Positions 37,061 through 48,300 of a stretch of 64,000 nt of DNA are shown one piece after another; the stretch's first letter is position 1; each line of letters opens with the position of its first letter. The translations under genes and the position numbers were made by a program. The DNA lies in NCBI GenBank assembly GCA_965243135.1, contig OZ251539.1, positions 4,768,001 to 4,832,000 on the forward strand, written 5' to 3'. The notes under the pieces were generated by a model. The model had not been told where the DNA came from and ran no database searches. It worked only from the letters and a program-made list of their open reading frames with translations. Source of the stretch: Alphaproteobacteria bacterium (GTDB lineage Bacteria > Pseudomonadota > Alphaproteobacteria > MPNO01 > UBA830).

Positions 37061-38823
37061 CCCGCATATCTCACCAGAGCGAATCAGGGGGCTGGATTCG
37101 GGTTGCGGGCGCGGTTTTCGGGACGACCGGCGAGCCGGGGAAACAGGGCGCAGTCAGCAAGCAGGGCTTTCTCACGAACGAAACACGAACTTGCGCGGCT
37201 GCGGGCGACTCCGACGCCATGGAATCCAATGCCCGAACATACCCGTCCCGTGGCCGGCGTTCCGGCTTTCGAAAAAGGGTTGTCGGGGCCGCGAGCGGCG
37301 TCAGGTCGGGGCCGGCGGCGCAGCCGCCTGCAAGTTCGCCAGGACCCGGGCGAACAGATCCTTCCACGGCCAGACCGACGAAAACGAGAGCAGAACCCTC
37401 CGAACGGAGATGCGGATGCAGACGGCGACCTTGAGGAGCTTCGTCCGAATCGTTCCGGCCTGCGCCCTGTCCTCCCCGGTGCCGGCCAGGCCGACCCTCC
37501 GAATCGCCGCCACCAGGTGGCTGGCGAACGTCGCAAAGTCGAGGCGCAACTGGTTCGCCCGCATGGTCGCGGTCGAGGTCCGGTCGGCGAACAGGTCGAG
37601 CTGCTGTTCCTTGATGCGGTTCTCCATTTCGCCGCGCGCGCAGTACAGATCCTCGTAGAGAGCCTGCGCTCCCGCCCGCTTGCAGCCCAGCGAAGTCACG
37701 ACGAAGCGGGCGTTGAGGCCGCGAGGACCCGGCAGCCACTCCGCCTTCGCGACCACCCGCCGCGTCCGGCTCCACGACCTCCGGGTTCGGTACCGGAAGT
37801 CGCAGAACCGCCGCGACGCCTTGCCGGTCGAGAGGCAGCGGCGGCGCGACTTGCGCAACTGCCTGGCGATGCGCCCCGCCAGGCGGGGGTTGCGGGACAG
37901 GCCGAACAGGTAGTCGACCCCGTTGTCTTCGCACCACGTCATGAGTTCGTCGCGGCAAAAGCCGCCGTCGCCGCGAACGACGATCCCGGTCTCCGGCCAG
38001 CGCTTGCGAATGCGCTCCACAATCCGTGCCAACTCCTCCGCCGTGCCCGCCGCCGGGTCGACGTTCGCAGGCCGCAACCGCGAACACAAAATCAGATCGT
38101 CCCACACGATGTAGAGCGGAAGGTAGCAGTATGAGTCGTAGTAGCCGTGGAAGTGACGCCCCTCCTGGTTGCCGTGCACCAGGTCGTCGGTGGAGTCGAC
38201 GTCCAGCCAGATCTCTTTCGGCGGCGACGGACAGGCGTCGAGGGACAAGTCGATCTTGAGATCGTCCAGCGCTCCCGGAATGGCCGTGATCTTCTTGTAC
38301 CGGTGCGTCTCGGCCTCGCCGGGAACGCCCAGCTCGAACCGGTTCACGGTGCTCGAACCGGCCAGTGGAATGCCGCGGTCGCGCTCCCGAACCCGCTCCT
38401 CCCCGGTCAGGTCGGTGCACCCGACAGCCAGCGCCAGCACGCTGTCGGCCCGAATCTGGTCGTGATCGTTCACGTCCTCGTAACCCAGCAAAAGGCCGAA
38501 CAGCCGCTGTGAAACCAACCGCCGCACCGGGTGCTCGAGGCGTTCCTGACATCGGTGATCCTCGAAGCAAGCCGCCATTCGCGGCGTCAGGTCGAGCAGC
38601 GTGTCGGCCTGGCGCAACAGCGTCGCGCCGCCGTCGGTGCTGAGCCGGCCGCCTTCGAAATCGCCGACCACCTTGCGGCTTCCGAGGCCTTGAAACTCAA
38701 GCTGCAACGGTTTACAGTCTGTTGGCATGGGGTTTTCCTTCGCAGGTCGTGTAGTGGCTTGATTCTTCTATATGTACTGCGAATCGAAGACCCCATGCAA
38801 CCAGTTGTGGTGAGATATCCGGG
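37061..38823 (-). mobile_element. Complete IS1380-family insertion sequence, 1763 bp
   Basis: 16-bp IRs CCCGCATATCTCACCA (37061) and TGGTGAGATATCCGGG (ending 38823); TTAG target duplication at 37057-37060 and 38824-38827. Confidence 0.95.
37301..38728 (-). CDS. IS1380 family transposase
   Basis: FEGGRLSTDGG, GYEDVNDHD, DVDSTDD..HGNQE, VRGDGGF, YCARGEMENRIKEQQ. Confidence 0.95.
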   Translation of the reverse strand: MPTDCKPLQLEFQGLGSRKVVGDFEGGRLSTDGGATLLRQADTLLDLTPRMAACFEDHRCQERLEHPVRRLVSQRLFGLLLGYEDVNDHDQIRADSVLALAVGCTDLTGEERVRERDRGIPLAGSSTVNRFELGVPGEAETHRYKKITAIPGALDDLKIDLSLDACPSPPKEIWLDVDSTDDLVHGNQEGRHFHGYYDSYCYLPLYIVWDDLILCSRLRPANVDPAAGTAEELARIVERIRKRWPETGIVVRGDGGFCRDELMTWCEDNGVDYLFGLSRNPRLAGRIARQLRKSRRRCLSTGKASRRFCDFRYRTRRSWSRTRRVVAKAEWLPGPRGLNARFVVTSLGCKRAGAQALYEDLYCARGEMENRIKEQQLDLFADRTSTATMRANQLRLDFATFASHLVAAIRRVGLAGTGEDRAQAGTIRTKLLKVAVCIRISVRRVLLSFSSVWPWKDLFARVLANLQAAAPPAPT

Positions 38824-38892: not shown

Positions 38893-40614
38893 ATGCGCGG
38901 AATGCGCGTCGCGATACCGGTTGCGATCATCGCCGCCTTCGGCTGCGCGCCCGACCGGCAAACGGTGGCTTCGCGGGTGGCGGACGCTTCCGGCGGTTCG
39001 AGGGTTCAGTCGACGGGACAGGTCGGGTCTTCGAAGGCCGGAAGCTTTCTGGCCGGCAACCACGCCCGGAAACTGAACGACTTTTCTTCGGAAGCCGACT
39101 TTCTGGCGCGCGCGCTGGCGGCCGACCCGGAAAACCGGCGCCTGAGGCGTCGGGCGTTCCTTGCCGCGCTCGCTGCGGGCCGCGTCGACGAAGCCGTCGA
39201 ACTGGCGCCGGCGGCCGGCCGGACAATGCTGGCCAGGCTCGCCCTGGCCGTCGAGGCGGTGAGAAAGAAGGATTTTCCCCAAGCGGAAAAAATACTGGTC
39301 GAACTGCCCGAGCGCGGCGCCGGCGCAGTCGTCAAGCCGCTTCTTCTCGCATGGGTCAAGGCGGAAACCTCCCCCGACGAAGCGCTGGAGGCCCTGGAGC
39401 CGATCAAGGAAGTGCGGGGACTCGCGTTGTTCGACCTCCATGCGGCGCGCATATTGGAAGTGACGGGCAAAGCGGAGGCGGCGTCGGAGCGCTACGAGAA
39501 AGCGAGAGAGAACTTCGAAGCCTTGCCGCTGCGGCTGGCCCGGAACCTGGGACGCCATTACGAGCGAACCGGGCGCACCGACGACGCGAGAACGCTCTAC
39601 GAGGACTACCTGGAGGAAGAACCGGACGCGGATATCGTGCGGTCCGAGCTGCAGCGGCTCGAAAGCGGCGAACGACCGGAACCGCTGATCGCGGATGCGT
39701 CGGCCGGCGTATCCGAAGCGTTGTTCGACCTCGCCGGCAGGATGGCGCGGCAGGCGCAGTTCGCCCTCGCGTGCGGACGCCTGTCCCTCCGGCTGCGCCC
39801 CGGCTTCGATTCGGCGCGCCTGCTGGTGGCGGGAATTCTCGAATCCATGGACCGGTACGAGGAAGCGATCGCCGCCTTCCGGCAAATCGTCGAGGATTCT
39901 CCTATGGCATGGTCCGCGCGGCTGAGCGTCGCGCGCAACCTGGAGCAACTGGAGCGCGACGCCGACGCCGTCGCGCTGCTCGTCGAGCTTTCCCGCGAAG
40001 GTCCCGCACGTTACGCCGCCTTCGTCGGTCTCGGCGATCTGTATCGCGCCAACGAACAGTACGAGAAGGCCATCGAAGCCTACGACAGCGCGGTCGACGC
40101 GGCGGGCGCGATCGGCAAAGGTCACTGGACGCTGCTGTATTCGCGGGGAATCGCGCTGGAGCGAGCGAAGGAATGGGACCGCGCCGAAAAGGACTTCGAG
40201 CGCGCGCTCAGGCTCAACCCGGACCAGCCTTACGTCCTCAATTACCTCGCCTATTCGTGGGTGGATCAGGGCGTCAATCTCCAGCGCGCCCGCAAGATGA
40301 TCGAGCGCGCGGTCGAGCAGCGTCCCGACGACGGCTACATCGTCGACAGTCTGGGATGGGCCCTTTACCGCCTGGAGAACTTCAAGGAGGCGGTGGTTCA
40401 TCTTGAGCGCGCCGTCGAGCTGCGGCCTCGGGACCCGACGATAAACGACCATCTGGGAGACGCGTACTGGCGGGCCGACCGGCGCCGCGAAGCGCGTTTC
40501 CAGTGGAAACGCGCGCTGACGCTGGATCCGGAACCCGAGATGGTCTCCGCGATAGAGGACAAGGTCCGCAACGGCCTCGAGGACGATCCCCCGAAGAACG
40601 AACAGGACGGCTGA
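38893..40614 (+). CDS. Tetratricopeptide repeat (lipo)protein
   Basis: Lipobox-like AFGC; VLNYLAYSW, DSLGWALY, NDHLGDAYW..R..EARFQW; usual neighbour of ispE. Confidence 0.92.
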   Translation: MRGMRVAIPVAIIAAFGCAPDRQTVASRVADASGGSRVQSTGQVGSSKAGSFLAGNHARKLNDFSSEADFLARALAADPENRRLRRRAFLAALAAGRVDEAVELAPAAGRTMLARLALAVEAVRKKDFPQAEKILVELPERGAGAVVKPLLLAWVKAETSPDEALEALEPIKEVRGLALFDLHAARILEVTGKAEAASERYEKARENFEALPLRLARNLGRHYERTGRTDDARTLYEDYLEEEPDADIVRSELQRLESGERPEPLIADASAGVSEALFDLAGRMARQAQFALACGRLSLRLRPGFDSARLLVAGILESMDRYEEAIAAFRQIVEDSPMAWSARLSVARNLEQLERDADAVALLVELSREGPARYAAFVGLGDLYRANEQYEKAIEAYDSAVDAAGAIGKGHWTLLYSRGIALERAKEWDRAEKDFERALRLNPDQPYVLNYLAYSWVDQGVNLQRARKMIERAVEQRPDDGYIVDSLGWALYRLENFKEAVVHLERAVELRPRDPTINDHLGDAYWRADRRREARFQWKRALTLDPEPEMVSAIEDKVRNGLEDDPPKNEQDG

Positions 40615-40637
40615 TTTTGGGCTCCTCCGGCGAGGGG

Positions 40638-41507
40638 ATGCGGGTCGCGGCGCCGGCCAAGATCAATCTCTTTCTGAACGTGACCGGCCGTCGAGAGGAC
40701 GGATTCCATCTGTTGCAGAGCCTCGTCGCCTTCGCGGACACAGGCGACGGACTGGCCGTCCGGCGCGACGCGGAGTTGAGGCTTTCCATCGACGGACCGT
40801 TCGCGGCGGATCTGGACGCGAACGACAACATCGTCCTTCGCGCCGCAAGGGCGCTGCGGCCCGCCGCCGGCGCGCGCCTGCGGCTCACCAAAAACCTGCC
40901 CGTCGCCTCCGGACTCGGCGGCGGTTCGTCCGACGCCGCCGCCGCGTTGCGCCTGCTCTCGCGGCTCTGGGAAATCCATTCCCCGGATCTGCCCGCGCTC
41001 GGGCTGGAACTGGGCGCCGACGTGCCGGCCTGCCTGGCCGCGCGAACGTCCCTGGTATCGGGAATCGGCGAGATCGTCGAACCCGTGGCTCCGCTGCCGG
41101 ATTGCGGCGTGGTCTTGGCGAACGCCGGCGCGCCGGTATCGACCGCCGCGGTCTTCGCGGCGAGGAGAGGCGAATTCTCGGAGCCGACGGCCTGGCGTCC
41201 GCCTCGCGACCTCGACGAGCTCGTCGCCCGGCTCGCGATCTCGGAAAACGACCTCTTCGACGCGGCGGTATCGATAGCGCCGGCAATCGCCGACGTACTG
41301 GATTCGCTCGAGCGAGCTCCATCGTGCCTGCTTGCGCGCATGTCCGGGAGCGGCGGCGCCTGTTTCGCGCTGTTTCCCGACCTGACGGCGGCGACCGAGG
41401 CGGCGCGCGCCCTGAAAGCCGATCATCCGCCATGGTGGGTGGCCGCCTCGCGGTTTCGCAGCCATCCGCCGGGGATCCAGGCTCTCCGAAGGCCGTTCCC
41501 GTCTTGA
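40638..41507 (+). CDS. ispE: 4-diphosphocytidyl-2C-methyl-D-erythritol kinase
   Basis: APAKINLFL, KNLPVASGLGGGSSDAA, LGADVP, RMSGSG. Confidence 0.96.
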   Translation: MRVAAPAKINLFLNVTGRREDGFHLLQSLVAFADTGDGLAVRRDAELRLSIDGPFAADLDANDNIVLRAARALRPAAGARLRLTKNLPVASGLGGGSSDAAAALRLLSRLWEIHSPDLPALGLELGADVPACLAARTSLVSGIGEIVEPVAPLPDCGVVLANAGAPVSTAAVFAARRGEFSEPTAWRPPRDLDELVARLAISENDLFDAAVSIAPAIADVLDSLERAPSCLLARMSGSGGACFALFPDLTAATEAARALKADHPPWWVAASRFRSHPPGIQALRRPFPS

Positions 41508-41649
41508 TTCCAACGGATTCCGGCGCGACAGCGCGTTGGCGCGAAATCGCGGCAGGCCTGTCCCACGCGGCGTCGCTCTCCCGACCAACCGGCCGCAAAC
41601 GGCGGTCCGACACGCGAGGAATTTTTTGCGGCGAGGCCTCTCCAGACGT

Positions 41650-42018
41650 TCAGGAGCCAGCGGCCGAGGGCCGTCCGGCCCTGTCTTCGCGCCTCGACGC
41701 CTGCATCGCGGTGCGGGCCCTGGGGAAGCATGCGCGCTTCGTGGATCCGTCTGCTGGCAGCCGGGGCGAGCCGCGGGGCGTCGGCTGGGCGACCGGCCAA
41801 AAAATGGTGAGTTCCCGGAGTTTTTTCGGCCCGAGGAATCTGGTGCCTATGAACAGGTAGCCGGCCGTCGGCGTATGACCCTCTCTTTTCAGAACGCAGG
41901 CACCTTGCATGGACTCGCCTTTGTACACGTCGTAGTGAACGTAATCGCCCTCGGTGTCCTCGCGGATACGGACGAGGATGTCCGTAATCATCGTCCCGTC
42001 TTCCATCATCATCGTCAT
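41650..42018 (-). CDS. Hypothetical protein
   Basis: ATG overlaps the stop of the upstream pseudogene (ATGA); protein-like N-terminal half; no family recognised. Confidence 0.4.
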   Translation of the reverse strand: MTMMMEDGTMITDILVRIREDTEGDYVHYDVYKGESMQGACVLKREGHTPTAGYLFIGTRFLGPKKLRELTIFWPVAQPTPRGSPRLPADGSTKRACFPRARTAMQASRREDRAGRPSAAGS

Positions 42019-42501
42019 TCTCCCTTGCATCCTTTGTCGTAAGCGGCTTTCGTTCCTCTCAGGTCGTAGTCGAAGTACACATAGCCTTTCCGGAAGTAGT
42101 ACACGGCAAGAAATAGCCGATCATGGTCTCCGCTAACGATCTGGCGGTAAACTGGATCGTCGAAAGTAAACATCGTCAGCATCTGCAGGCCGGGACCCAG
42201 AAGAACATCGCCTTGATCGCCTGTTCTCGGTCGATTCTCAGCTGCTACATGGATTCTTTACGGCCGTAGAGATCGAAGCAAGCATTGCCGACATTCAGAT
42301 AGTCGAAATAGAAGAGAGGACTCATCTATCCGCACTTAAGCACCAGGCGCGACGAGATGGACTTGCTGGTCGTCTCTGGCGACATGACCAACACCGTCTC
42401 TTTGTCGGTCATCCGGTGTCGGTAACGATCAATGTCCCACTCATCCGCCTTCGTCGATGTCGTCAACAGGACGCCAACGGCCAGCAAAATCTTCAGTTTC
42501 T

Positions 42502-44418
42502 GTGCGCCGTGGAAAGGCGCTTTCTTCTGGTGGGTGCGAATCCCACCCAACAACTGTCGTTCCGGTTGGTAGCAGCCAGGGCGGTTTACGGAGGTAACGA
42601 TGTAGGCTGAAGCACTCTGGAAATGGGCGGCGAAGGCCGCTCAGCGAACATGCGGGCCGAAACGCGAGTGAACCAGGCCTCGAAACATGTAATGCGGAAG
42701 CTGACCCTCCGGAAACTAGGGGAAAGCCGCCGACGGTCGGGAAGAGAACGACAAGAGCACCGACCGTTTCCGCCGGGGTAATGATGTCGGCACGCATGAA
42801 AGATGAAGGAAGCAGCAACACGGGAAGCCCTGTCGGTGACGCGCATGAGTCAACCGGAACCCCGCGAGGGGCAGGCCGGGCCGGCAGGGTGGCGGAGAGG
42901 CCCGTAGTACCGGAGAAGCCGGGTAATGCCGGTGGAGGAAAGGGGCCTTGGGTCGAGAGAAGCGTTGGAAGGAAGAAAGGACCTGGCAAAAGCCTAGCAG
43001 CCTCGGAGAAAGTTCGGAGACTCCAGACAACGTTACAAGCGAAGGAATCCCCGAGCCTTCGGTTCTACTCGCTATGCGACAAGGTATGGAGCTACGAAGT
43101 GCTGTTCACTGCCTGGCAGGACGTCCGTCGAAACAGAGGGACCGCCGGGACGGACGGAACGACGATAGCGAATATCGAAGCGCAAGGAGTGGACCAATGG
43201 CTTGAGGAACTGGCACGGGACTTGAAAGAAGGAACCTACCGACCGACCGCGGTACGGCAAGTTCTGATCCCAAAGAAACAGCGCGGAAAATTCCGGCCCC
43301 TGGGCATCCCCTGCATACGGGACAGGGTGGCGCAAACGGCGGCGATGCTCGTCGCCGATCTTCGAAGCCGACCTGCAACCGGAGCAGTATGCCTACAGAC
43401 CGGAAAGAGGCGCACTCGACGCGGTCAATCGGGTGCACCAGTTGCTGAGACAAGGCCACCACGAGGTGGTGGACGCGGACCTGTCCGACTACTTCGGCCC
43501 CTCATGCGGAACTGATGAAGTCCGTCGCCCGTCGCGTAAGCGATGGACGAATGCTGGGCATGGCTGGAAATGGCGGTGGAAGAGGACGACGGCAAAGGCG
43601 GCAAACGCCGCACGAACCGGGCGCGTAGGGAAAGGAAAGGCACTCCGCAAGGAGCACCGATCTCCCCTTTACTCAGCAACATCTACATGCGTCGTTTCAT
43701 TCTGGGCTGGAAGGTATTGGGCTACGCTCGAAACTTCTGCGCGAAGATCGTCAACTGGACAGCGTAGTGCTCGGCAAAGCGCCGGCCAGCAAGATGCTGG
43801 CGGCAGTCGAAGCACTCATGAAAAGGTTGAAACTGCCGATAAACGCGGAGAAGGCTTACAGGTACCCGAGAAACCACTGGAATACCTTGGGTACCGAATT
43901 GGACGCAACTACCGACGGAACACGGGACGATCCTATATTGGAACGCGCCCAAACCCGGCAAGCGTCCAGAGCATAAGCCAACGGATCAGTGAAATGACGG
44001 CACGAAAGAACGGACAGCTCGAACCGGACGAGATAGTAAAACGCCTCAACAGGGTAATAACTGGATGGGGAAACTATTTCGTACTGGGACAAGTTAGCCC
44101 CGCCTATGCCGCCGTCGATCGACACGCAACCCGTCGGCTGCGCCAATGGCTCTGTCGCAAGCACAAGGTGCGTAAAGGAAAGTATGCGCGCTTTCCAGAC
44201 AAATACCTATACGAAATAGGTCTTACGCGCCTTACACCGCGAACGAAGAGCTTTCCGTGGGCGAAGGCATGATCTCGACCGAAGCGCGGGAAATCCGCAC
44301 GTCCGGTTTGACGAGCGGGGACTGGAAACGTGGCCATGGGAGCCGGACTGAGGCCCGAAGCGAAAGCGACGGAACATCCACCGGACCCTAAAGCTAACGC
44401 GCCAGTCCTCGACTCTAC
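42502..44418 (+). mobile_element. Group II intron (decayed)
   Basis: 5' GTGCG at 42502; domain V-like GCGGGAAATCCGCACGTCCGGTTTGACGAGCGGGG near 44285; 3' end ...GACTCTAC; boundaries supported by rejoining of the host ORF. Confidence 0.9.
42990..44272 (+). pseudogene. ltrA: Group II intron reverse transcriptase/maturase, multiply frameshifted
   Basis: RFYSLCDKV, AGTDG, IPK..GKFRPLGIPCIRDRVAQTA, VVDADLSDYF, GTPQGAPISPLLSNIY, GWGNYF in different frames; YADD missing after KIVN. Confidence 0.9.
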
Positions 44419-44492
44419 TCATCGTCTTTCTTCCTTGGTTGGTTACGGGGCCGGGAGTTGGACCCGATTTTCTGGCTTATGAGACCAGCGAC

Positions 44493-44969
44493 TTACCGTC
44501 TGTCTCCCCTGCGTCGCGACAATTTGCTATGTATCCATTTCGTCAAATCCGGAAACGTATCTCTTCTATCAAGCATGTTAAACACGGACCTAGGTTCCGG
44601 TTCATACTGATAGAGACAACCGGATTTGTCAGATGCTTTCACAAGCCCGATCTCATAACCTATCCACGCTGTATTGAGATCAGCGTGTCCCTTCACGACC
44701 TGCACATCGCATCGAGAGATCACATCGGCAATGTACTTCGCTAATGTCCGTTCGTCCTGCTCTGCGGTCATAATATGCTGAGACGGCAGGCTGTATTTCG
44801 ATTTCATCCATTCTCGATATGCCTGCGCCGAGGAGCCGACGATCTTGTTTGTCTTCGGATCCCAAATAGCGCTGTAGACCTTGAAACCCTCATCTCTCAT
44901 TTTCGAGACAAGGATTGGCGCATCTCCATCTTGGGTACGGTGCGTCAGAAAAACATTGTAGCGTTCCAT
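44493..44969 (-). CDS. TIR-like domain protein
   Basis: YNVFLTHRTQD first strand and AWIGYEIG (catalytic-Glu-like motif); strong GGGAGGAG RBS; lower GC. Confidence 0.65.
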   Translation of the reverse strand: MERYNVFLTHRTQDGDAPILVSKMRDEGFKVYSAIWDPKTNKIVGSSAQAYREWMKSKYSLPSQHIMTAEQDERTLAKYIADVISRCDVQVVKGHADLNTAWIGYEIGLVKASDKSGCLYQYEPEPRSVFNMLDRRDTFPDLTKWIHSKLSRRRGDRR

Positions 44970-44990
44970 CTCGGTCTCCTCCCTTTCTCT

Positions 44991-45195
44991 GGTACATCCC
45001 CGCGGGTGCGGGGAACGCTCGCGGAAACGCGCCCTGTTGCATCATTTCGGAGCTACATCCCCGCGGGTGCGGGGAACGCTGGTATCCCGACAGCGCGACG
45101 GCGGCTTTCGACGCTACGTCCCCGCGGGTGCGGGGAATGCGCCCGATCGTCGCCGCGCACGAACGGCCCGTCGGGTACATCCCCGCGGGGAAAGC
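44991..45195 (-). CRISPR. Orphan type I-E-like CRISPR mini-array: 4 repeats, 3 spacers
   Basis: Repeats G(G/C)TAC(A/G)TCCCCGCGGGTGCGGGGAA(C/T)GC at 44991, 45052, 45113 and a shortened copy at 45174; 61-bp period; three unique 33-bp intervals; reverse complement resembles the I-E repeat. Confidence 0.88.
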
Positions 45196-45379
45196 TGACG
45201 AATCACGCGTCAGCGGTCGTCGTCGCCGAACTTCACGTCCGACGCTTCGGCGTAGAACACCGAACGTTCCGCGCCGGGCGCGTGGTGTACGGCGCAAATG
45301 CCCCGAAAATGCGTTATACTGCATCGCGCTTATCTAAAAGGCCTCTCCTTCGCCGAGGGGAAGGGGGGCAAAGGGGGGC

Positions 45380-48300
45380 ATGGCGATGGCTTTGAAACAT
45401 TTGCGCGCCGCGGTTGTCTGCGCGGCGTTTCCGCTCTTCCTTCCCGCGCCGGACGAGGCGCGGGCACAGGCGGCTTACGAATGCCAGGCTTCGGGGCAGC
45501 CCAACAACGCAGGGGCGATCTCCTGCGCGGACCAGGCGTGGACGAGCGGCATCGCGCACGCTATCAGCTCCTCCGCCGCGTCTCTCTCGCTCACCGTCGG
45601 AGGCGGCGCAGCGACCACGGTCACGGCAGCTAACGCTAACGCAGGCATCGGGCTGGGGACTGGATCCTCGACCTCCGCCGTCGGCGACCTGACCCTCACG
45701 GTCGGCAGCGCGGGCGAGGTCGCGGTTGTGGAGGACAGCCTCGCGAGCCACGGCATCCATATGCTTCAGCGAGGCGGCGGCGCGACCACGGCGGACGTCA
45801 GGAGCGGCGTCACGATCGGAACCGCGACCACTCCGCTGAGGAATCGCGGCATCTCTCTCGAGCTGAACAGGGACGCCGCCAACAGAGGCGGCGGCGCAGC
45901 GAGCCTGACGAGCGGGGCCGCGATCCATGCCGCCCACCAAGGGCTTTACGTCTGGAGGTCGTCCACTGCCCAGACCGGCGCGGCGACGACCATCGTCAAC
46001 ACGGGCGCCATCAGCTCGGGCGTCGGCAACGCTGCCAGCACCCAAACGGGCAACCTTCGGCCGCACGGCATCGTTCTCAGCGTCGAGACGCCCGACGACG
46101 GCAGCAGCGACGGCGACGCCAAGATCACCAATTCGGGCGGCATTACGGTCTCGGGCGGCTATGACGGCATCCGCATGAACTACGACGCCTTCGGCGACGC
46201 CGAGGTGGACAACCGGGTCGGCGGAGACATCACGGCGACGGCGGCGGGCGGAAGGGGCATCGCGCTCCTGTACAGCCAGAGTTCCGGCACCGCAAGGATC
46301 AAGAACGCCGCCACCATCAACGCGGCCGGCGACGCCGCCGAGGACGACGACGATAGCGGCGCCATCTACCTGAAAAATAGCGGCGCCAGCGCCAGCGCCG
46401 TATTCATCGAGAACAGCGGCGACGTCACGGCGACGGCCGCCAGCGCCATCTATACGTATGCGCAAAACGGGGCCGTCAGCGTGACCAACAGCGGGGATCT
46501 TTCGGCGTCGGGGGAGGGGGGTCGCGGGATCCACGTGTGGAACGAGGGCGACGGTGCCGTGACGGTCACGAGCAGCGGCGGCGAGATCGAGTCGGCGGCT
46601 GCGGAAGGCCTCTATGTTCTAAGCGAAGACACGGGCAACGGTCAGGTGAAGATCACCCAAGCCGGGGCGATTCGGGGCCGCACGGGCGTTTACGCCCAAG
46701 TGGCGCACAGCACCACCGCCGCGACGGTCGCGCAGCGGGCGGCGACGGACCAACCGCTGATCGACATCGCCTGGACGGGCGCGTCCGGGAAGACCGCCGC
46801 GACCGCTTCCGACGACACTGGTCGTTTCGCTGCGACCGCCCTTGACCGGGCGGCCGTCGACGTCCATCGAGGAGCCGTGGTCGAGAAGGTTACGCGCTAC
46901 GGTCAGGCGGCGGGAATCGAGGCGCGGATCATGAGCATCGGCGATGTGGCGACCTTCGTGGCGAATGGCGACGACCCGTTGGAACTAATGAGCCAGGACG
47001 CCCAGACCGCCCTTCTGACCGGCATGAGTCCGGGCGACGTGACAGCCAGTCCGGGAACCGAGGCGCGCAAGGCAGCGATCGTGAAGCAGTTCCGGAAACT
47101 GGTCGAAGCTGAGGATTTCGTATCGATTACCGACCGGGACGACATCGACAACAATCCGAAGGACGGAACTTACGAGGACGAAGAGATCCTGAACTGGTTG
47201 GGATTTAACAGCCCCGAACGCCGGACTTTCTTGCGCGATCTCCTTCGGCAAGGACTTTCCGAGGGCGTAGACGAGAACGTAGACGAGGGCGAAAAAAAGA
47301 TTCTCGAGGAGCTGACGACGGGAGGCAACCTGGGCCCGTTGTTTGACCTCCTGCCCACCTTCCAAGGTGTCTCCTGGTACAGCGATGCTTGGAAAGAGGG
47401 TGTGCGGGCGTTTCTGCGCCGGTACAATGTCGGGAATATCCGCATCTCGGTGAACGCTGGCGACATCTCCTCTCGGGGCGACGGAATCCGCGCCTACTAC
47501 GCGACGCCCCACCCGAACAACGGGGCCATCTCCATCACCGTCGCCGCTGGCGCGAGCGTGACCGGCGGCAAAGCGGGCATCTGGGTCGCCAACGCCGGCA
47601 GCTACGACGAGAACGACGGCCTCAACGCCGGATTGCACAAGCAGCACGTCACGGTGCATGGCACGGTGAGGGGCGGAACTGACGCGGCCGTGCATCTGGT
47701 GGGCGGCGGCTTCCTCACCGTCGGAGAAACAGGCGAGATCCGTGCCGGCCAGTCCGGGAAGGCGATCCTAGTCAACGATCCGGGACCGGCGCGGATCGTC
47801 ATCAACGGCTTGGTGCGCGGCGGTGTCGGCGCTGGTGCCAACGCGGTACCCGCGGTGAATCTGACCGGTGCCGGTCACAGTCTGACGATCGGCCTGACGG
47901 GAAGAGTGGTGCTCAATGAAGGGGCCGAACTTGCGATCCGCGGCGACGGCACGGACGTGATTATCTACGTCCTTCGCGATCCCAGAGAAGTGCAAGATTG
48001 GATCTCGCGGCAGAGCGCCGAAAAAGCCGTGAGGCGGGGGCTGGGGGTGACGGGCCTCATCATCGGTGATGGAACCACGAGCACCACCTTCACCGAGTGG
48101 GAAGAGGGGGTGAATGGACCGATGAGAACAGGCTTCAGAGAGCCCGTTCCTTTGGTGAAGGGCAGACCGGATACGTTGGAGTTGGATCCCTGGAGGCTCC
48201 GCGATAACGGCGGCGGAGACGGAGGCGACGGAAACCAAGGCGGCGGAGACGGAGGCGACGGAAACCAAGGCGGCGGAGACGGAGGCCGCGACCGGCCGCG

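Follow-up and report, generated by a model that had tools for sequence, protein, structure and literature searches.

A leaderless type I-E CRISPR mini-array at the start of a weakly TIR-like gene in an alphaproteobacterium, most likely a decayed satellite array

Introduction

Does a small CRISPR array that ends 21 nt before the start codon of a gene take part in the control of that gene, or is it a relic beside which the gene happens to lie? The question is raised by a 64,000-nt stretch of DNA from an Alphaproteobacteria bacterium (MPNO01; UBA830; assembly GCA_965243135.1, contig OZ251539.1), hereafter the window, which corresponds to genome positions 4768001–4832000 on a single 6.10-Mb contig. 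Here, a mini-array of four repeats on the minus strand runs into the ribosome-binding site (RBS) of a 158-aa open reading frame (ORF) whose product is weakly ThsB/TIR-like. Coordinates are given in window numbering on the + strand unless they are called genome coordinates. An earlier note, made from the letters of this DNA alone, had suggested that the mini-array might control a toxic TIR gene in the manner of CreTA modules, and had offered a decaying array remnant as the simpler alternative. It is the simpler alternative that we favour. With a probability of roughly 60%, the mini-array is a decayed, leaderless satellite type I-E array of the host lineage lying beside foreign genes; it has no leader, one repeat has lost its hairpin, and two others carry mutations in the handle. 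Nothing as yet demonstrates that the array is a switch for the TIR-like gene.

Results

The mini-array and its junction with the gene

Counted from the gene outward, the mini-array consists of R1 (44991–45018), R2 (45052–45079) and R3 (45113–45140), each of 28 nt, and of a 22-nt R4 (45174–45195), all on the minus strand. The repeat starts are spaced 61, 61 and 61 nt, and the intervals hold three distinct minus-strand spacers, S1 (45019–45051), S2 (45080–45112) and S3 (45141–45173), of 33 nt each, a length that depends on the repeat boundaries chosen in this analysis. In its sense form R1 reads GCGTT-CCCCGC-ACCC-GCGGGG-ATGTACC, with the hairpin whole, and it agrees with the mini-array consensus at 28/28 positions and with the repeat of the main array of the genome at 25/28. 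R2 (27/28 and 24/28, respectively) departs from R1 by a single base in the handle part (ATGTAGC), and R3 (25/28 and 23/28) by three changes, which give GCATT at the 5' end and an ACGTAGC handle. The hairpins of R1, R2 and R3 are intact. R4 scores 20/28 against the mini-array consensus; it has kept both ends, 6 nt of the hairpin are deleted, and no Cas6e hairpin remains. All four copies are slightly unlike one another. The mini-type repeat contains the word CCCGC twice with one base between, and the deletion in R4 would be the exact product expected of replication slippage between these two words.

A search of the window for a 26-nt core of the repeat, allowing up to 3 mismatches, gave three matches, and no match at all occurred in 100 shuffles. 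When the whole genome was scanned at a threshold of at least 20/28, the mini-array copies scored 28, 27, 25 and 20, and no other site outside the main array scored above 21. Repeats of 28 nt, a period of about 61 nt, unique 33-nt spacers and a CCCCGC-loop-GCGGGG hairpin (absent from R4) are all features of a type I-E array, and they bear out the earlier description of four slightly different I-E-like repeats with three spacers. An AT-rich leader with a promoter beside the first repeat is not present.

The gap between R1 and the ATG at 44969 measures 21 nt (44970–44990, minus strand) and contains the RBS GGGAGGAG at −14 to −7 relative to the ATG, just as the earlier note had stated. No sigma-70-like promoter or terminator-like site is predicted between the array and the ATG, and a consensus scan of 44300–45500 returned 0 promoter-like sites and 2 terminator-like sites, both of which lie outside the stretch from the array to the ATG. 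If the TIR-like gene is expressed at all, its transcription most likely passes through the array. A degenerate repeat within the 5' end of the ORF was also considered and was dismissed by inspection, the N-terminus of the ORF being that of a conserved protein.

Upstream of R4, on the leader side, a stretch of 250 nt shows no likeness to the leader of the main array (local score 18; shuffles 17.7 +/- 2.3, maximum 24). A fifth hidden repeat or a leader remnant in this place is ruled out by the genome repeat scan together with the leader alignment. The distance from R4 to a divergent autotransporter gene, which starts at 45380, is only 185 nt, and a 7-bp inverted repeat, GCTGACG/CGTCAGC (45194–45214, minus strand), overlaps the first two bases of R4. 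Since it is without a leader and its leader-side repeat is without a hairpin, the mini-array can no longer acquire spacers.

The type I-E system of the host

At up to 2 mismatches, the repeat core has 84 matches in the genome, comprising 3 in the mini-array, 78 in the main array and 3 elsewhere. The main array lies at genome 5302437–5307163, about 490 kb from the mini-array, and has 78 copies of an invariant 28-nt repeat; a length of 33 nt is shared by 75 of its 77 spacers. A degenerate last repeat marks its low-coordinate end, and the leader and cas2 are found at the high-coordinate end, which is adjoined by minus-strand cas2, cas1, cas6e, cas5, cas7, cse2, cse1 and cas3, all of them open frames. 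Type I-E families were matched by 8 of the 10 ORFs submitted at this locus, with Cse1 and Cas6e scoring below the cut-offs of NCBIfam. On PF08798 Cas6e nevertheless reaches 80.1 bits, and its 296 aa lie in one open frame, which rules out a suspected frameshift in cas6e. A host without cas genes, which the earlier note had named as counter-evidence to its proposal, is therefore not the case here: the genome holds a complete open-frame I-E operon and a matching array of 78 repeats.

Genome-wide searches with the Cas1e and Cas6e families gave matches only at 5.307–5.309 Mb, apart from one weak Cas1-like match. They placed no cas gene in the window, in keeping with the earlier note, although not every ORF of the window was scanned for cas families. 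The weak Cas1-like match (24.7 bits) is at genome 5264358–5264555, about 43 kb from the I-E locus.

The minus strand is the sense strand of both arrays, because the leader and cas2 of the main array are on its high-coordinate side and its degenerate last repeat is on the low-coordinate side. The mini-array therefore runs in the same direction as the ORF, with R4 at its leader end, so that two further statements of the earlier note, on the orientation of the array and on the most damaged repeat standing at the leader end, hold. The stem CCCCGC/GCGGGG is identical in the main repeat and in R1, R2 and R3, and the handle ATGTACC is common to R1, R4 and the main repeat. Together with the period of 61 nt, the 28-nt repeats and the agreement of 23–25 of 28 positions with the main repeat, this handle suggests that the mini-array is genuinely of the host lineage. 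The only exact match of a mini-type repeat 24-mer outside this genome is in an ordinary array of an unrelated symbiont, whose consensus handle is ATGAACC. The repeat variant of the mini-array is absent from 25 other genomes of the family, and a repeat 21-mer has no match in viral contigs.

Further repeats were also observed in other places. A third array with a period of 61 nt, apparently with an unrelated 28-nt repeat, is found at genome ~2742676–2742890, where the periodicity alone was confirmed; that secondary arrays of this period occur elsewhere in the genome agrees with a satellite origin of the mini-array. Between cas3 and cse1, at genome 5313643–5313762 (+), two degenerate repeats stand exactly 61 nt apart and agree with the sense repeat at 21/28 and 20/28 positions; the handle part is kept in the first and the hairpin part in the second. 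They are preceded by a promoter-like site, TTGACC...GATATT, and point away from a stretch that is AT-rich and contains TATAAT words. By its layout, this element looks like a CreR/CreA-type regulatory mini-CRISPR of the host I-E locus; its 33-nt spacer has no target in its own intergenic region. In two sponge-labelled metagenome runs, contigs carry a repeat at least 85% like that at window 44990–45024, followed by other spacers, and judged by these contigs, related I-E arrays are present in the two samples. The window locus itself appears in these runs only as short, low-depth pieces. Four DNA-type runs gave short contigs only, with no contig across the junction of array and ORF and no strain variation at the locus.

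Spacer targets

The sense form of S1 matches the minus strand of genome 3258359–3258391 at 30/33 positions, the first 24 bases being contiguous. This target is the antisense strand of the host uvrC, at a position within the helix-hairpin-helix end of a full-length 630-aa UvrC, and its protospacer is flanked on the 5' side by GGC. Of the three mismatched bases, one alters a third codon position of uvrC synonymously. A search of 77 other genomes of the order, allowing up to 3 mismatches, gave no match to S1, and the source of S1 is therefore this lineage or a very close one. Neither of the other two spacers has a convincing target, the best own-genome match of S2 being 20/22, while an exact 18-nt match of S3 at genome 3633881 extends only to 21/33. 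Their 24-mers are absent from viral contigs, and phage records contain no protospacers for main-array or mini-array spacers. Mapping of the spacers, as the earlier note had advised, led to the host chromosome for S1, to no viral contig for S2 or S3, and to no local promoter for any of the three.

A scan for partial matches covered window 40000–48000 with S1, S2 and S3, and the three intergenic regions of the cas locus with the same spacers and the 33 nt that follow R1. No CreA-type seed-proximal match above chance was found in either. The best partial matches are 13/14 in ispE, at a distance of 4.3 kb, and, upstream of cas3, a run of 8; both are at chance level for the number of positions tried. 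The proposal of CreTA-type control is not supported by these results, as the spacers have the full length of 33 nt, none matches a local or cas promoter above chance, and the sole real target is uvrC, 1.55 Mb away.

Chromosomal matches are not confined to the mini-array. In a pair of main-array spacers (genome 5304541–5304573 and 5304663–5304695), one has a 33/33 self-match at genome 4133743–4133775 with the 5' flank CAG, in a dihydroorotate/dihydropyrimidine-dehydrogenase-like gene (named from its translation only), and the second has a 30/33 match at genome 5244041–5244073 with the 5' flank GGC. Self-matching spacers are therefore tolerated in this genome, its apparently intact cas operon notwithstanding.

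The 158-aa ORF

The ORF (44493–44969, minus strand) has a GC content of about 49%, against 65–70% in the flanks. The strand motif VFLTHRTQD stands in its N-terminal part, and the motif W-x-x-x-E-I at residues 102–107. The earlier designation as TIR-like has weak support. The PADLOC models of ThsB match the ORF with E values of 5.2e-4 and 8.1e-3, whereas no Pfam family does so at E of 1 or less. PF08937 and PF13676, used in a six-frame search of the genome, have no match at the ORF and match four other places each. Among 5.8 billion clustered proteins there is one homologue, 53% identical and co-linear from start to stop; it is a singleton encoded on one 3,032-nt ENA contig, and its score of 25.9 bits on TIR_2 is below the 28-bit cut-off. 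The profile of these two sequences brings up an eIF2-alpha entry of the PDB first (E 9.6e-4), and TIR proteins only at E 0.2–1.2 over the first ~40 residues. Alignment of the ORF by hhalign with the four ThsB_TIR genes of this genome gives a probability of 17.8% and an E value of 0.0014, with the W-x-x-x-E-I word aligned. Within this word, which is W-I-G-Y-E-I in the ORF, E106 is invariant in the ORF and its homologue and aligns with the W-x-x-x-E-I-like words of the ThsB_TIR genes of the genome; this glutamate may be the TIR catalytic residue.

The nearest neighbours of the ORF in ESM features (0.85–0.87, to be read as leads only) include ThsB_TIR, TIR_2, deoxyribosyltransferase and two virus-only clusters. 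An AlphaFold2 model is unusable, with a mean predicted local distance difference test score of 36.8. A whole-library HMMER search returned 22 matches at E of 1e-3 or less, one of which is the ORF protein itself. The other 21 are proteins of 420–1603 aa that match in 3–10 short stretches each, within query residues ~13–124, and we take them to be the noise of repeat proteins. No relatives of the ORF were found in 400 other genomes of the class, JGI metagenomes, one-per-species genomes, viral contigs, plasmids or phages, and therefore no conserved linkage to repeats can be shown. Taken together, the product is probably weakly ThsB/TIR-like. It resembles ThsB and TIR_2 proteins of Thoeris in its similar size, its beta-alpha pattern, its N-terminal (D/N)-V-F-L-(S/T)-H strand and the W-x-x-x-E-I motif; unlike them, it falls under every curated threshold, is without an adjacent ThsA-type partner and has a single known homologue.

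The low-GC islet

The ORF is the first gene of an islet (41750–45000) across which GC drops from 0.64–0.71 to 0.49–0.53, and the drop begins directly after R1. At its distal end, the ORF is overlapped over its last 7 codons and stop by a tRNA-like element (44443–44513, minus strand, with an encoded CCA to 44440) that scores 34.1 bits against a cut-off of 29. The element has a CAU anticodon, a C1:A72-type first pair, one extra acceptor mismatch and an odd T-loop, and among the 52 tRNAs of the host it is closest to initiator tRNA-Met (score 27, next 17). ARAGORN calls no tRNA at this element. The sole homologue of the ORF shares the ending G-(D/E)-R-R-stop despite different preceding 20 residues, and there are hints in these two sequences that the overlap of the tRNA-like element with the end of the ORF may be conserved.

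Beyond the tRNA-like element lies a group II intron (42502–44419, +), which is multi-copy in the genome and whose reverse transcriptase/maturase frame is split (42781–43515 and 43433–44272). It is inserted antisense, one base past the ATG of a 63-aa signal-peptide ORF (42326–42501 and 44420–44424, minus strand), and can therefore not be spliced out of the mRNA of that ORF. Many full and ORF-less copies of this intron family occur in the genome, and several sit at a CCATCG site within one repeated gene. The rest of the islet (41650–42501, minus strand) holds the body of the 63-aa ORF, followed by ORFans of 55 aa and ~74–126 aa. No integrase or phage gene was found among 20 neighbouring ORFs tested, and an integrase beside tRNA-Gln was tested and rejected. 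An insertion sequence-type DDE transposase (PF13701, 444.8 bits) lies at 37301–38728 (minus strand), 3 kb beyond ispE, and may be taken as a further sign of a variable neighbourhood. Genomes of the same genus are too distant for synteny (IspE is 50–56% identical and the autotransporter is present in 0 of 4), and a DNA search of 40 relatives recovered the intron tail only. With their low GC, the ORFans and the antisense group II intron, the genes next to the array look foreign and would be unlinked to CRISPR.

Discussion

The decayed satellite array that we consider most likely can be given the following history. A secondary I-E array of the host would have taken up a spacer from uvrC of its own lineage, now the innermost spacer S1, and would then have been inactivated, losing its leader and one hairpin so that three spacers remain. 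The low-GC islet would have been acquired horizontally, and its first gene, encoding a rare ThsB/TIR-like protein, would have come to stand directly at the array. If this gene is expressed, its transcription would most likely begin in the 185-nt divergent intergenic region and pass through the array, and the array would now be at most a captured 5' leader. The anatomy of the array, its cognate cas system, the self-match and the absence of a leader and of any CreA-type match are observed; the order of these events, the co-transcription and the unselected nature of the juxtaposition are what we infer. The loss of leader and hairpin, the handle mutations and the kept self-spacer fit the marks expected after the uptake of a self-derived spacer, and the handle mutations fall exactly in those repeats from which S1 and S2 would derive their 5' handles. 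Stern et al. are said to have reported in 2010 that self-matching spacers accompany degraded arrays. Orphan or satellite I-E arrays provide the closest likeness, in that the mini-array is distal to cas, has a repeat of the host subtype, has lost its leader, and carries mutated repeats and a self-derived spacer. It differs from them in that the best-kept repeat is leader-distal and the array runs into the RBS of a co-directional gene.

Several observations weigh against this history. The junction is tight, with no more than a few bases between the end of R1 and the beginning of the low-GC islet. In general, the leader-distal repeat of an array decays first; here the gradient is inverted, as the leader-distal R1 is the best-kept repeat and has the same handle as the main array. 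The 8-nt stretches just after R1 (44983–44990), R2 (45044–45051) and R3 (45105–45112), in sense AGAGAAAG, TCCGAAAT and GTCGAAAG, have the pattern xxxGAAAx in common. When main-array spacers were resampled, this coincidence had a P of about 0.001–0.006, a value that is post hoc, and GAAA at positions 4–7 occurs in 0 of the 77 main-array spacers. The GAAA copy of S1 is true uvrC sequence. Plain decay leaves the shared pattern unexplained. Moreover, since Cas6e is intact and the stem of R1 is kept, any transcript reading across R1 would be expected to undergo cleavage 28 nt before the ATG. Cleavage by Cas6e of a leader containing R1 is chemically plausible, as the hairpin stem and the AUGUACC handle are common to R1 and the main repeat, and some functional coupling would be hard to avoid if the locus is transcribed.

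Such coupling could itself have been selected. If the array were a selected 5' leader, the gene would be under Cas-coupled post-transcriptional control with Cas6e cutting at R1, and the mRNA would begin at the AUGUACC handle, 21 nt before the ATG. Either Cas5e and Cas7e would load over the RBS or the cut would set the stability of the mRNA, and the TIR-like protein would be made only upon loss or inhibition of Cas, or only when Cas is present. The cognate cas operon is indeed intact, R1, unlike R2 and R3, agrees exactly with the main repeat in stem and handle, and the gap fits only an RBS, with no promoter or terminator predicted there. A study of type I-Fv (PMC4937334) describes Cas5-Cas7 units that form on the 5' tag once it is freed, where Cas6, bound to the 3' hairpin, acts as a roadblock to the Cas7 filament, an assembly that would lend support to loading from the handle; R1 is not followed by a hairpin of this kind. 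Protein toxins repressed by CRISPR are known as well, the gene regulated by CrePA being one that can encode a protein toxin (10.1101/2024.01.05.574328). We nevertheless consider this control unlikely. It would be a single instance without conserved linkage, the ORF is weakly TIR-like, and the dead R4 keeps the ACC handle too, so the conservation of the handle in R1 may be chance. Known Cre systems act at promoters and not on mRNA, and we know of no stand-alone ThsB-type protein that is toxic by itself. Cas5e and Cas7e might also polymerise from the R1 handle over the RBS and the start codon, with no 3' hairpin following, and silence the gene for as long as Cascade is plentiful; depletion of Cascade by an anti-CRISPR or by loss of cas would then release the TIR-like protein and arrest or kill the cell. 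The initiator-tRNA-like element over the stop codon could be part of a module of this kind, which, on our analysis, would be very unlikely.

An origin of the islet as the stump of a phage or other element would account for the low GC, the ORFans, the tRNA-like element and the group II intron insertion. Its repeat units, acting as a viral mini-array, as an RNA anti-CRISPR or as a Cracr-type array, would serve to use or jam the host I-E system, and the TIR-like gene would be transcribed with them as an accessory or anti-defence gene. In ESM features, the two closest neighbours of the ORF are virus-only clusters (0.87, again a lead only), and the Cracr arrays of phages for I-E systems resemble small arrays with damaged repeats (10.1101/2024.10.29.618823). 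The likeness extends to a small array without cas, to the foreign-looking DNA and to repeats that mimic those of the host. On the other hand, the GC drop begins only after R1, so the composition of the array is host-like, and S1 derives from a housekeeping gene of this lineage. According to the same preprint, Cracr spacers are 21–24 nt long, matching casA promoters, and such short spacers match cas or creT promoters; the mini-array has full-length spacers of 33 nt, no match to host cas promoters or leader, and no mobile-element backbone. With neither integrase nor phage genes among the tested neighbours and the repeat 21-mer missing from viral contigs, we regard cargo of a mobile element as quite improbable. 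An equally doubtful possibility is that the array still works as a satellite, in which case R3-S2-R2 and R2-S1-R1 would give two CRISPR RNAs (crRNAs) to the distant Cascade for interference or silencing, possibly damping uvrC, and the TIR-like gene would be unrelated. The hairpins of R1, R2 and R3 and the host cas genes are intact, and S1 pairs with the uvrC coding strand over 24 contiguous bases proximal to the protospacer-adjacent motif (PAM). Both would-be crRNAs, however, would carry mutated 5' handles, S2 is without a target, and no leader or promoter was found. The uvrC protospacer has the flank GGC and not an AAG-type I-E PAM, although AAG may not be the PAM of this system.

The CreTA-type module of the earlier note, in which a crRNA-like RNA of the array would guide Cascade by partial complementarity to repress the promoter of a TIR-like toxin gene, is in our view extremely improbable. 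Cascade genes are present in the host, and the CreR/CreA-like degenerate mini-CRISPR between cas3 and cse1 makes a regulatory use of Cascade conceivable. With CreTA, CrePA and CreR the mini-array has in common that the host has a type I effector and that repeat-derived RNAs would arise next to a gene that may encode a toxin. In the relevant reports (10.1101/2023.03.10.532045 and PMC10120712), CreA and CreR guides make seed-proximal, PAM-flanked promoter matches of ~10–15 nt, and Cre modules, sited inside cas loci, have one spacer-like sequence between degenerate repeats. Here, three apparently normal 33-nt spacers stand between repeats of which R1, R2 and R3 are near-canonical and not of the degenerate psi-R type, and the array, 490 kb from cas, seems to occupy the leader of an mRNA and not the side of a promoter. 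No seed-proximal spacer match in window 40000–48000 goes beyond chance, the best being the 13/14 in ispE.

Csy4 insulators are engineered Cas6-type sites, and in the PERSIST platform synthetic Cas6/Csy4 cleavage sites in 5' untranslated regions (UTRs) reportedly set or switch expression. The mini-array resembles these 5'-UTR sites in placing a Cas6-type hairpin just upstream of an RBS, where cleavage would define the 5' end of the mRNA; they are engineered, whereas the mini-array is natural. No natural Cas6 site in an mRNA leader was found in the literature, although the supplementary tables of the cited surveys could list such loci.

Conclusion

If the mini-array is only a remnant, it documents how a type I-E array decays, through loss of the leader, slippage in a hairpin and mutation of the handles around a self-derived spacer, and it also shows that self-matching spacers are tolerated in a genome with an apparently intact cas operon. 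A functional junction of repeat and RBS would provide the first natural example known to us of a Cas6 site in a leader that ties a defence-type gene to the state of CRISPR-Cas. A leader that senses Cas in this way would be a counterpart of CreTA that uses a protein toxin, acts at the level of translation and lies outside the cas locus.

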